DNA of 64,000 bases from Tricharina praecox. Its lineage: Eukaryota. Below are positions 37,530 through 50,972 of the stretch, one piece after another. A program made the translations under genes and the position numbers. The stretch lies in assembly GCF_024521635.1 (NCBI RefSeq), contig NW_026250406.1:1364001-1428000 (forward strand), given 5' to 3'. Under the pieces are notes generated by a model that did not search any database, was not told the origin of the DNA, and was given only the letters and a program-made list of their open reading frames with translations. Within the stretch, counting starts at the first letter, position 1. Every line of letters starts with the position of its first letter.

Positions 37530-39706
37530 ATGCCCGGCGCCGTCGAGATTCTACCGCCATCGCCGGCTCTGCGGGCATCCAAACTCCCCGATGCGCGCAT
37601 CCGCGACCACGCGATCCGGGTCGCGCCACTGCTCGACAACTTCCACGTGACATGGCTGGAAAAAGAGAAGGACCGCTGGGTCCAGGAGGGCTGGATCACG
37701 AAGGCGCACAAGGACGCGCTGGTCACCGGCGTGGGGTTTAGTACGTACTCTACCATCCTACCCACCGTGTTTCGCGTTCCCTCGGTGGATGTTTGCTGAC
37801 GGTGGTGGTGCGGGAAAAAGTCTCCTCCGTGAAAGGCATGGGCAGCAATCGCGGCAGCAAGCGGGATATCCAAGACGTGTACCTGATGCCGCCGGGGGCG
37901 ACCAAGCCGTCGCTCGTCGTTGAGGGCGGCGCCGCGCACGACGAGAAGGAAATGGTCAAGGACATGAAGAACTGGCTGAAGAAGGGCCAGAACCAGGTCA
38001 AGAAGGTTATCTTGATTATCTGGATCATGCTGCCTGGCGGCATCATGGGTGGCCGCATCGAGGTCTATGAAATGGACGAGAAGAAGAAAAATACGGTGCT
38101 GGTGGATGAGTGGGTATGTTGATGCCGTGCCGGAGGTGGCGAGCGCTGGATGGACCGTGTTAATGGCCGGGTGTCTGCAGATCTACGTACCGGAGGACCC
38201 AGATTCGGAGTCGCAGTCGGTGCGGTTGACGTTGGGGGAGCTGTACAGCACGAAAGCGGACCGGCTGCCCCCGCACGAGCGCGAGATCATCATCGACATG
38301 CAGATCGAGAAGTTGTGCGATGACGCGGTCGAGGCGATCGGGTCGTCGAACCTGCAGTGCGCCGACCCGGACGTGGGGCTGTGGCACTTCCAGAACCCGC
38401 AGCGGCTGCTCGCGAGCGAGAAAGATGGCCCTGGGGGCGGCAGCGGCAGAAGCATCAACTCACATAATACCAATGGCAGCTACAATACAACCATCGACAA
38501 CTCCAACCGTGCCGTGCAGAACTTTCATTTCTACCACTTTGTAAGCCTGCCCGCGAGCCGTGCTCTGTGTAGCCGAGCGAGCTGACTGACCTGACCTTCG
38601 CAGCCTACTTCCCCAACAGACTTCCTCACATACATGCACAACATGATGCAGAAGCTCCCGGCGTTCACCGCCGACTACCCAACCATGGAGGCGAAAGCGC
38701 GGAAATTCGCGAGCAACATCAACCCCGCGCTGCGCGACCTGCACCTCGCGCAGCCGGACACCTTCAACCTGACCAAAGTCGCGCTGTACGACGTGATCAT
38801 CCTCTGCGGTCCGTGTCCTCCCCCCGCCCCCCCCCCCCCCCGTCCCGCCCCACTGACCAAGCGCAGACGACAGCGGCTCCATGAACCTCGGCAACCGCAA
38901 CGCGCTGCTGGCAGAGACGATCGACCGGATCCTGCCGGTGGCGACTCGGCTGAACGAGGCCGGCGTCTCCCTGCGCTTCATCAACTACAATCAGGACCGC
39001 GAGTTCAACGACTTGACGTCGCAGCCGCAGGTGGCGAAGACGCTGCGTATGGTGTCGCCCGCGGGGACGACGCGGATCGGGACTGTGCTACGGCATAAAA
39101 TCGTTAAGCCCATACTCGCGAAGGCGAGGGCGAATACGCTGGTTTCGCCCGTGTTGGTGGTTATTGTTACGGATGGAGAGGTGAGCTGAGTTGAAGAGCG
39201 GTGGGGGTAGATAGGGGGCAGCAGCTAACGCCCCGCGTGACAGCCGTCGAGAGAACCACTCGACACCCTCAAAAACACTATCATCTCGTGCAAACACGAC
39301 CTCGACGAGATTACGAACGCGTCGGGCAGCGCGTACGGTCGCTCTTGTGCGTTTCTCCCCCCTCCCTTCCCTTCTTTCCCCACCTTTTACTGATTAGAAG
39401 GATAGCGGTGGTATTCCAACTATCGCACGTAGGCGACAACGCGGACGCGGAGCAGTTCGTGCACAGCCTGTCCGTAGACCCAGAGCTCGAGGGCATGGTC
39501 TACTGTAACCTCAAAAAGCTCGATGAGCAGCTCGCTAGTGGGTCGTCGGCGACGAAGAATCGTTCGGTATGTTGCACACTTACCTGGGAGGCGGTGAGGG
39601 AGGGGTGGGGGTGTAAGGGGGTTTATTGGAGATGTTGCAGGGGCTAATGAATGGGTGGGATGAACAGTTGCTGGAATTGTTGTCGGTTGCGATTAATAGG
39701 TCGTGA
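37530..39706 (+). CDS. PD-(D/E)XK/Uma2-like domain + Asn-rich amyloid-like linker + vWA domain protein (~561 aa)
   Basis: Exons 37530-37740, 37821-38113, 38181-38540, 38604-38808, 38867-39180, 39244-39346, 39406-39566 and 39668-39706, all GT..AG and frame-consistent. N-domain QDVYLMP..KPSLVVEGG..DMKNWL..VKKVILI. vWA MIDAS CDDSGSM, GTTRIG, VIVTDGEP, VFQLSHVG. Confidence 0.85.
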
Positions 39707-40240
39707 TCAGTGCGTGATGAGTGGATGCCGGAGGGGGAGGTTTGTCTGATTGGAGAGTGTATTATGCGTGATTAATGATCGACGACGACGATTGATGTTG
39801 ATGATGATTTATGATGATTTATGACGGTTTTGGGGAGGTTTATTGGCGTTGATTTTTTATTTCTTGGGAGGAGGGGGAATGGGGTTGACTGCGAGGCTAC
39901 GGGGCTACGAGGCTGCGAAGGGTGGTGACCTGCGAATGGGGCAGGTGCTCCCATGAGACGATCACCGCGGGATTGGACTTGGATCACGACAGCGTGCCGA
40001 GTGGCCGAGGAATATGAAGTCAGGCCGCACATGCGGGGAACGAGCCATTGGCCGGGCGCCATGGCGGGGATTCGGGAATGGATATGGCAGCCTCGGTGGG
40101 GAATGGATTATGGGCGTGGGTTGCGTGCTCGAGGCGTTTGGGTGGTGTTTACTGTTTTCTTGCTTTTCAGATGTACATACAATATTTATGAACGGCTATC
40201 ATTTCCGTGGACGTGCTGTTCTCCCGGGAAATGGGAGTCT

Positions 40241-49295: not shown

Positions 49296-50972
49296 ATGTC
49301 CCGCCGCCCCACCACCTTCCGCGTAGGCAACATCCCCTCGTCCGCAACCCTCCCGGAGCTCAAGGATGCGCTCGTGAACGCCATGGCGGTTGAGGAGTGC
49401 GACGCCATAACCATCGAGGCAACGATCGCACCCGCAACCACGCACGCGGACGACGACACCAACACCGCGCTCGTCACATTCTCGCCGCAAGCGCCCAAGT
49501 TCCTGGGCCCATTGTGCAAAGCCGAAGATGTTCAGATCGACACGCCCCTGGGAGATCTGTCTTTCGATAAGACGTTCTACGGGCTGACGCAGCTGTATCC
49601 TACCACTCCCGATAAGCGGATCGAAGCTGAGTGAGTTCCTCCCCGCCCACCGCTTTCCGATGGTGGAGGTAGACTGACGACGGACAGTATCGTCGCGGTC
49701 ACGGGGCTCGACGGCCACGCCTTCGGCTCGTGGCGCGGGAAGGGCGAGCTCGCGCGGATGTGGCTGCGAGACTTCTTGGCGAAGGATCTACCGACGTGTC
49801 GCACGATGGCGTACGGGTACAACACGAAGCTGGGACACCATTCGATCCATACGATTGCCGACTACAAGATCGATCTGTTGGAGCAGATCAAAAATGCCCG
49901 GACTACCCCGGAGGTGCGCAGCGAGTGCGAGTGAGAGGTTGTGATACAGGCTGATGATCGGCATAGCAAAAACGACGGCCGCTGATCTTTATCGGACATA
50001 GTTTTGGCGGTATTGTGACTTTACAGGTATACTTATTTTCTTCCGCAACTCCGTCTGGGCTGATAATCTGCAATCCTGTAGGCGCTGGTCAAATCCGAAG
50101 AAGCCCTGGAATGGGATGACGATCCGGAGACGCACTCCATCTACCAAGCCACCAAAGCCGTCATGTTCTTCGGTACACCGCACCACGGCCTCCCGACTGA
50201 CGACATCCTCAGCATGATCGACGCCAAAAACAACGGCGAGCGCGCGGAGCTCGTCAAGTCCATCGGTGTCGGCTCGCCGGTGCTCTCGGAGCACCTCACC
50301 AAGTTTGGGCATTTTGCCGACAGGCTCAAGATCTTCAATTTCTACGAGCGGCAGAAGACAAGGGCCATCGACATAGTTCGTCCCCGCTGCGCCTCCCCGT
50401 GCGGATCCTGCTGACTTGTGGCGGGGAAAAAGACGGATGGCCGACCAGCGCGAACAGGCGACTACATAATCCCGGTGGACACAGACTCGGCGCTGCTGAA
50501 CCTGCCCTACGTACAGGAGACCGCAATCCCCGTCGACGGCGACCACAGCACGATGGTAAAGTTCAACAGCCAGACCGACCGCACCTACAAGACGATCCTG
50601 TCGCACCTGCGGACGCTGCTGAAGTCGCTTGCGGACGACGTGCCGCCCGTACCCTCGGCCACACAGACCTACACGCCCATCCCGCCCGGCCCCAAGGCTA
50701 CCAAAGACCTCATCGACGCTGTCACCCGCTGGGACGCGGCAAACGTTCGCATGATGCTCGAGTCCGGCGTCTCGCCTAACGTGCGGGATTTGAAGGGTGT
50801 CACCGTGCTGCATCATGCCGCGAGAACGGGCGATGAGGAGATTGTTACCATGCTCGTGAAGAAGGGCGCGGATACTAATGTGAGGGACTTTAAGATGAAG
50901 ACGCCGGGGGATTATGCGCGTTCCGCTGGGCACGGGGGGCTGGCGGGGAGGCTGATGGCGGGTATGTTGTGA
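49296..50972 (+). CDS. SesB-like alpha/beta hydrolase (lipase) with C-terminal ankyrin repeats (~484 aa)
   Basis: Exons 49296-49630, 49688-49913, 49967-50026, 50082-50375 and 50433-50972. Motifs DIVAVTGLDGHAFGSW, MWLRDFL, YGYN, RPLIFIGHSFGG (nucleophile elbow), FFGTPHHG and DHSTMVKF. Ankyrin motif GVTVLHHAARTGDEEIVTMLVKKGAD. Confidence 0.9.

Follow-up and report, generated by a model that had tools for sequence, protein, structure and literature searches.

MicroProteins are small, show homology to an interaction module found in a larger protein and act by titration; the classical ones copy folded dimerisation domains of transcription factors. Adjacent genes whose products have a short motif in common are also described in amyloid signalling. 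The sigma locus of Nectria haematococca encodes products with a common motif, which is C-terminal in sesA and sesB and N-terminal in HET-eN, a NACHT-ankyrin NOD-like receptor (NLR) (PMC3321046). The PP cluster of Chaetomium globosum likewise consists of motif-coupled adjacent genes of Pezizomycotina. In the PUASM pairs of this group, a PNP_UDP effector is coupled to a NACHT NLR, and certain NLRs are described as having amyloid-like motifs in an internal position (PMC9815663). A bacterial amyloid-signalling system that works without an NLR is Bab/Agp, an abortive-infection pair of Escherichia coli in which Agp has the architecture TPR-GreA/B-C-PIN (10.1101/2024.11.07.622273). In this study, a cluster of four genes was analysed in a stretch of 64,000 nt from Tricharina praecox (assembly GCF_024521635.1, contig NW_026250406.1, positions 1,364,001 to 1,428,000 of the forward strand; hereafter the window, in whose numbering all coordinates are given). 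An earlier note, made from the letters of the window, had read the cluster as a candidate amyloid-signalling module without an NLR. We found a co-inherited, co-oriented and expressed gene set, in which the conserved interdomain segment of a vWA-domain protein is copied by small, predicted disordered proteins that are encoded next to it.

Gene structure and transcription of the cluster

Transcript contigs were obtained from two runs of two studies (X1 and X2, labelled 'RNA?') and covered positions 34000-51500. These contigs lack GT..AG-bounded segments at 14 places and are thus cDNA-derived, by which the gene models were fixed. The matches of two soil metatranscriptomes (X3 and X4) were confined to a poly-C tract and low-complexity bits. 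The four consecutive co-oriented genes of the earlier note were borne out by the spliced contigs of both studies: all four lie on the + strand, all are spliced and transcribed, and their order is vWA gene, microprotein gene 1, microprotein gene 2 and hydrolase-ankyrin gene. The Pfam scan of the open reading frames (ORFs) of the window revealed no further recognisable gene between them.

The coding sequence (CDS) of the vWA gene (37530..39706, +; stop codon 39704-39706) contains 8 exons and gives 561 residues on spliced translation, the contig joints placing its introns at about 37741-37820, 38113-38179, 38541-38603, 38808-38865, 39179-39241, 39347-39405 and 39566-39666. The interdomain linker motif is encoded at 38433..38540 (+), and its end coincides with the exon 3 donor. 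A 12-nt repeat of 4.6 copies (37463-37517) was observed just 5' of the start codon, where transcript contigs break, and the poly-C tract inside intron 4 (38820-38851) draws unrelated metatranscriptome reads.

The mRNA of microprotein gene 1 (43684..44561, +; 820 nt spliced) was recovered as an X1 contig, with its joint in both X1 and X2. It starts at 43684, about 30 nt 3' of a TATAAG (43650-43655), and carries a 58-nt intron (43785-43842) in the 5' untranslated region (5'UTR), which comprises 114 nt without an ATG; the CDS (43856-44131, 91 residues) opens at the first AUG of the mRNA. In microprotein gene 2 (+), contig joints and the ORF placed the 5'UTR intron at 46682-46752 and the CDS at 46767-47042, again of 91 residues. 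The microproteins are expressed as spliced mRNAs, and the 91-residue products are predicted proteins. The hydrolase-ankyrin transcript (48601..51243, +) was contained in an X2 contig with four GT..AG joints, giving introns at about 49631-49687, 49912-49964, 50025-50079 and 50376-50432 and a CDS of 5 exons (49296-50972, +), which translates into 485 residues. A leader of about 700 nt (48601-49295) runs ahead of its predicted start codon and holds an ORF of 105 residues (48695-49012) that belongs to no known family.

Domain structure of the vWA and hydrolase-ankyrin proteins

The vWA protein is composed of an N-terminal domain (N-domain) with a predicted restriction-endonuclease fold (Uma2/DUF820-like), a Gly/Asn-rich linker and a TerF-like vWA domain. 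Exon 5 alone matched Pfam PF10138 (vWA-TerF-like) with 36.5 bits (cut-off 29.4, E 7.1e-9), and the metal-ion-dependent adhesion site (MIDAS) was intact in the spliced protein, with DxSxS at residues 357-361 and TDGE at 458-461. The N-terminal ~245 residues matched no Pfam family, Uma2 included; a protein-atlas lead for exon 2 was Uma2, present in 23% of cluster members (score 0.84). The fold was tested on the paralogous N-domain that is contiguous in the related locus L014, from an 11-row alignment, and the model had a predicted local distance difference test (pLDDT) of 64 and a predicted template modelling score (pTM) of 0.62. Restriction-endonuclease-like structures ranked first in VIA-align: 3ijm_B (Z 7.8, root-mean-square deviation 3.2, 117 aligned) and 1wdj_A (TT1808; Z 7.7, 2.8, 108), next 9y1l_B (Z 7.0), 3s1s_A (BpuSI, 6.9) and 3h1t_A (HsdR fragment, 6.5), with the DUF820 protein 3ot2_B at Z 6.5, and values of Z below 8 may reflect a common arrangement. 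Foldseek returned nothing at E<=0.001 for the same model. These results suggested, with moderate confidence, that the N-domain has a PD-(D/E)xK-type fold. The proposed likeness to Uma2/DUF820 is one of fold and that to TerF-type vWA domains one of Pfam match, and the N-domain differs from Uma2/DUF820 in its lack of a Pfam Uma2 match and in a catalytic-type Glu found in some homologues only. The window, L001 and L004 retain this core-strand residue; L005, L008, L010 and every one of the upstream paralogues have another residue in its place, so that nuclease activity may not be the property that is conserved.

The 485-residue protein consists of an N-terminal domain of ~110 residues, a putative alpha/beta-hydrolase domain and ankyrin repeats (DNA ~50742-50919; Ank Pfam matches, E 1.3e-9). 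Its description as SesB-like is tentative. A GHSFGG nucleophile elbow with downstream Asp/His candidates and the C-terminal ankyrins were present in the spliced protein, and the protein-atlas leads were DUF676 (25% of cluster members) and Ses_B (30%; score 0.85), but no exon reached any Pfam hydrolase model in exon-wise scans.

Sequence features and constraint of the microproteins

The microprotein genes lie in a tandem duplication of 1.1 kb, for which blastn aligned 43247-44440 with 46223-47196 (74.5% over 1063 columns); the block holding gene 1 spans 43247..44440 and the block holding gene 2 spans 46226..47340, neither being assigned to a strand. Many indels were found in the flanks and none in the 276-nt microprotein ORF, and the two proteins (m1 and m2) were identical at 64/91 residues in an ungapped alignment. 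The ratio of nonsynonymous to synonymous substitution rates (dN/dS) of the ORF pair was 0.42 by NG86 and 0.34 by LWL85, with the strongest constraint on the N-terminal 24 residues (0.14), and the TATA box and the 5'UTR intron were conserved in both copies. An indel-free ORF in an indel-rich duplication, together with this dN/dS and the conserved TATA box and intron, indicated that they are genes and not chance ORFs.

Both microproteins are rich in Asn, Thr, Ser and His, with 11 and 17 charged residues (12-19%) and 9-10 hydrophobic residues out of 91. The similar hexads described for them in the earlier note were confirmed by a period-6 residue repetition (lag-6 z 3.1 and 3.3) and by 18-nt repeats in the DNA. 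The AlphaFold2 monomer was unstructured (pLDDT 43) and showed no beta-arch. No Pfam family was matched at E<=10, and an exhaustive HMMER search of 1.84 billion representative proteins gave one relative only (P0005, 74 residues, E 6.9e-5); word-indexed homologue searches, with the microproteins near their lengths and vWA exon 3 at longer lengths, gave no match, which is not evidence of absence. Across four microproteins, 22 columns were invariant: the first 24 residues contain 11 of them, the centre (S-x-N-x-T-x-S-x-N) contains 5, two are H67 and N73, and the other 4 belong to a C-terminal G..Q.FG. Compared with the vWA, hydrolase and upstream proteins, the N-terminal 24 and C-terminal 20 residues of the microproteins did not score above shuffles. 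Other identities were considered for these proteins. A likeness of the hexads to the repeats of plant ice-recrystallisation-inhibition proteins was dropped after a profile search of PDB sequences with 0 matches at E<=10, and a ribosomally synthesised and post-translationally modified peptide precursor or a secreted repeat protein was rejected by eye, with no apparent signal peptide and no tailoring enzyme in the Pfam scans.

Similarity between the interdomain linker and the microproteins

The Asn-rich linker that the earlier note had seen between the two folded domains was located at residues ~253-288 of 561, between the N-domain and the vWA domain. A Gly-rich lead is followed by an Asn-rich core (N-x-x-N-x-x-x-S-x-N ... 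D/E-N-S-N/Q) and by a tail with alternating aromatics. The motif was conserved in 5 of the 6 distinct vWA homologues aligned from metagenome contigs, and the Asn, Ser and D/E-N-S positions, then the alternating aromatic tail, recurred among their linkers. The linker-bearing homologues (L001, L007/8, L005/6 and L009-11) had exon 5 identities of 82%, 70% and 68%, and in L002-4 the core carries a 9-residue deletion. Absence of the linker from orthologues had been named beforehand in the earlier note as a point against its idea; homologues of the vWA gene proved to have it. The linker is more than low complexity.

The best ungapped segments between 6 exon-3 translations and 4 microproteins (24 pairs) were compared with 300 composition-preserving shuffles. 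In all 24 pairs, the best segments fell in the linker and the microprotein centre. The observed score was reached by none of the 300 shuffles in 7 pairs and by 3-14 shuffles in 11 pairs; the remaining 6 pairs, with 18-154, were not significant. The summed score was 1038, compared to 695 +/- 27 for shuffles (0/200 reached it) and 778 for reversed microproteins, which indicated that the likeness is ordered and not just periodic. Aligned by hhalign, the linker alignment and the microprotein alignment matched with P 0.0024 over 37 columns, and in this register 4 of the 5 central invariant microprotein columns coincided with identical linker residues. A hidden Markov model of the microproteins, run on the six-frame ORFs of the window and 16 related loci, recovered the four microprotein ORFs, and its best other match was the linker of the window (E 0.36, not significant alone). 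A regular expression for the core matched only linkers and microproteins in the six-frame translations of the window and of all 16 loci. The DNA over the best 24-codon match was identical at 37/72 positions, evenly across codon positions, which suggested a likeness at the protein level and not a recent conversion.

Conservation of the cluster in related loci

The scan of metagenome contigs gave 16 loci of ~8 distinct locus types. The synteny check proposed in the earlier note revealed co-occurrence of the genes: vWA, microprotein and hydrolase-ankyrin genes recur together in the divergent L005/L006, whose vWA exon is 68% identical to that of the window, and vWA and hydrolase genes recur without a microprotein in L001. 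In the window, the hydrolase-ankyrin gene lies 3' of the vWA gene; the same order was seen in L001 over a distance of 4.3 kb and in L005/6 over 5.5 kb, and L010 has a distant hydrolase-like match 3' of its vWA gene. Between the two genes, the window holds two microprotein copies and L005/6 one, coding for a homologue of 82 residues, and the intergenic DNA of L005/L006 is otherwise unalignable to the window. Neither a hydrolase nor a microprotein was found within 6.6-6.8 kb in L002-4. In L008/L010 (one contig) and L007/L009 (one contig), two paralogous linker-bearing vWA genes were observed ~17 kb apart in the same orientation, with reverse-transcriptase (RVT_1) fragments between the copies and an opposite-strand ankyrin gene after the second copy.

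A divergently transcribed upstream gene with a paralogue of the N-domain and long repeats was present in the window, L001, L005/6, L009-11 and L012-14. In the window it occupies 26554..35482 (-; CDS limits approximate), as derived from transcript contigs, an intron at 34434-34488 and translations. Its segment 34964-35281 (-) is paralogous to vWA exon 2 by tblastx and tblastn, the catalytic-type Glu is replaced, and the tail contains an acidic tract, a His/Ser-rich (SHSHSH-type) tract and Pro-rich PPKEVEP-like repeats that extend over more than 2500 residues; no Pfam match was obtained. A similar giant ORF lies upstream in L001, and the 28-34 kb region of the window has a GC content of 0.61-0.63 and an AT skew of about -0.32. 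In L012-14, the vWA homologue is more distant (49% identity) and apparently lacks the fused N-domain, and a gene carrying the N-domain sits divergently upstream of it as a split form of the fusion. The occurrence of the N-domain and the vWA domain in neighbouring genes suggested that the two domains are functionally linked.

The His/Ser tract of the upstream protein, the 4-8 His and 6-8 Asp of each microprotein and the vWA-TerF-like Pfam match, a subtype found in tellurite-resistance TerF proteins, would also suit a metal-related stress module, with divalent metals handled or sensed by the His/Asp/Asn-rich microproteins, the upstream tract and the metal site of the vWA domain. A single His is invariant among the four microproteins, and the scan of window ORFs gave no gene for a transporter, for TerD or for another metal-related protein; this explanation is very improbable.

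Several observations weigh against a functional relation between the linker and the microproteins. The hhalign probability was just 12%, the paralogue m2 had no significant similarity to most linkers, and the linker and microprotein of the same locus were not the best-matching pairs, so that no locus-specific co-variation was seen. Because the tested sequences are mutually related, the z-scores overstate independence. Between m1 and m2, constraint is lowest on the linker-like segment (dN/dS 0.59), and no microprotein was found in L001 (5.5 kb 3' of the vWA exon) or in L007/8 and L009-11 (5-10 kb), which leaves microproteins in 2 of the 5 linker-bearing locus types with at least 5 kb downstream of the matched vWA exon. 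One rival explanation is that there is no functional coupling, the microproteins having arisen by partial duplication of the linker exon or by parallel expansion of Asn/Thr codon repeats and being young and weakly constrained, with independent neighbours. The slippage-prone 18-nt repeats, the weak constraint on the centre, the drift of m2 from the linker, the vWA homologues without a microprotein beside them and the very narrow distribution with one database relative agree with this origin. It accounts poorly for a position between the vWA and hydrolase genes that is kept in L005/L006 despite unalignable intergenic DNA, for the strong constraint on the N-terminal 24 residues, for the TATA box and 5'UTR intron conserved in both copies and for the central residues invariant in four homologues. 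We regard the absence of coupling as possible but rather improbable. In that case, the locus would still show clearly how a linker-like repeat can give rise to a microprotein.

Proposed regulation of the vWA protein by the microproteins

The best reading, held tentatively and with somewhat less than even confidence, is a microProtein-type regulation of the vWA protein via the shared motif. As in microProteins, a small stand-alone protein copies one interaction segment of a larger multi-domain protein; unlike in the classical cases, it is a disordered linker that is copied, and the genes involved lie in one cluster. We infer that free copies of the motif would engage the interface of the linker, either by strand-to-strand pairing with the linker itself or by competition for its docking surface. 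One candidate docking surface is the vWA metal site, which could take the conserved acid of D/E-N-S; given this acid and the intact MIDAS, mimicry of a metal-site ligand is one concrete version of the competition. By such binding, the microproteins may control if the nuclease-fold domain stays with the vWA domain or comes free of it, and their conserved N-terminal 24 residues probably make contact at another, separate site. Co-inherited partners are the hydrolase-ankyrin gene and the Pro-rich-repeat paralogue upstream, whose domain content points to a module of the stress, immune or cell-death type.

If the coupling is functional, the cluster would widen the grammar of motif-coupled modules. 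It also indicates that larger genes can have conserved partners in transcribed ORFs of 74-91 residues that are hardly represented in protein databases, and with four small expressed genes it provides a compact and testable system.

Comparison with amyloid signalling clusters

The fungal motif-coupled clusters compared from the literature join an NLR receptor and an effector via terminal motifs. The statement of the earlier note that no NACHT or NB-ARC gene is visible was upheld: none was detected among the 20 + 121 window ORFs scanned (121 of the 142 ORFs of at least 118 residues), nor among 56 of the 172 long ORFs of six related loci, and exon fragmentation could hide a weak match. An NLR partner with an N-terminal motif within ~20 kb, a hallmark of amyloid clusters, was not found in these scans. 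The effector with a C-terminal motif was also missing, as the motif is internal and the hydrolase has no copy; neither the hydrolase nor the other cluster proteins contained the core motif or the N- and C-terminal motifs of the microproteins. The earlier note had seen no evident amyloid motif in the SesB-like protein, which stands, and had rested its membership on adjacency only, which no longer holds given the recurrence of vWA and hydrolase genes in L001 and L005/L006. A third hallmark, the same short motif in neighbouring gene products, was present in the linker and the microprotein centre.

With the sigma locus the cluster has in common neighbouring products with a short common motif, a putative sesB-type alpha/beta-hydrolase and ankyrin repeats (PMC3321046). 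It keeps the motif-sharing neighbours and the putative SesB-type hydrolase and replaces the rest: no NLR was detected, the hydrolase is motif-less, and the motif lies internally between the domains of the vWA protein and in free, stand-alone microproteins of little more than the motif. With respect to the PUASM pairs, the microprotein C-terminus resembles the G-x-G-x-Q-x-x-G core and, judged by eye, agrees with the published pattern FxGxGxQxxGxGxF at 5 of its 7 fixed positions (PMC9815663). Different from the PP and PUASM systems, no G/Q-motif partner was found in the window or the loci, the shared motif is of Asn/Ser/Thr type, and no NLR and no PNP_UDP or HeLo effector was detected. Bab/Agp is similar in its adjacent motif-sharing genes and its non-NLR sensor that includes a nuclease domain, and differs in being bacterial, in terminal motifs rich in Gly and hydrophobics, and in fibrils and prion-like foci that were demonstrated for it (10.1101/2024.11.07.622273). 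Searches of full-text literature, with subscription journals outside reach, gave no description of this gene combination, of stand-alone motif-only fungal proteins or of a Uma2-like/vWA fusion joined by such a linker. In its way of working, the cluster would resemble the NLR/effector amyloid clusters of fungi, to which it does not belong.

According to the amyloid explanation, the microproteins adopt or nucleate a cross-beta fold, for which the linker of the vWA protein is then templated, and so switch on cell death or an immune response; the SesB-like lipase would be a co-effector, and no NLR would take part. The Asn-rich motif of ~25-35 residues common to neighbouring products, the linker with a flexible Gly-rich lead and an alternating aromatic tail, and the PUASM-like microprotein end are features in favour of this explanation, and it can draw on a putative SesB-type hydrolase neighbour like that of the sigma locus (PMC3321046), on the internal amyloid-like motifs of some NLRs (PMC9815663) and on Bab/Agp as a bacterial non-NLR precedent (10.1101/2024.11.07.622273). 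However, the linker and the microproteins matched no Pfam model at E<=10, HET-s_218-289, NACHT_sigma and Ses_B included, the motif is internal (residues 253-288 of 561), and the microproteins have a very polar make-up. Between m1 and m2, it is the linker-like segment that has evolved fastest, within-locus co-variation is lacking, and the hydrolase and other cluster proteins are without the motifs. The absence of a beta-arch in AlphaFold2 points the same way, and an unstructured monomer does not decide the matter. Amyloid templating, as put forward in the earlier note, was therefore not supported, and we consider it unlikely. Its fullest version, an NLR-independent prion-like fungal module in which motif-only microproteins seed or gate the nuclease-fold/vWA protein via the internal linker, with the SesB-like lipase-ankyrin protein and the giant repeat protein as co-effectors, appears slightly more doubtful; if true, it would be the fungal counterpart of the non-NLR Bab/Agp pair and give the first motif-only protein in such a pathway.

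Other features of the window

The region between the divergent upstream gene and the vWA gene (35341-37492) was fully covered by RNA-derived contigs, which could stem from 5' leaders that are long or overlap, from a non-coding RNA or from carry-over of DNA. A transcribed multi-copy element (~41900-42350) lies between the vWA gene and the microprotein genes and was matched by many contigs at 90-95% identity, with insertions, loose ends and one chimeric joint back to 49735; it is probably a repeat or transposon relic. At 6865-8028 (-), an ORF contained strong TPR_10/TPR_12 repeats, of a kind that NB-ARC-TPR NLRs carry C-terminally. The ORFs upstream of it, 8032-8643 among them, gave no match to NB-ARC, and a Clr5 domain suspected for an ORF in this position was not confirmed by Pfam. 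Further away from the cluster, a histidine phosphatase (His_Phos_1, E 1.3e-34) was encoded at 15624-16631 (-) and a SUR7/PalI family membrane protein (E 6.4e-23) at 21854-22729 (+).

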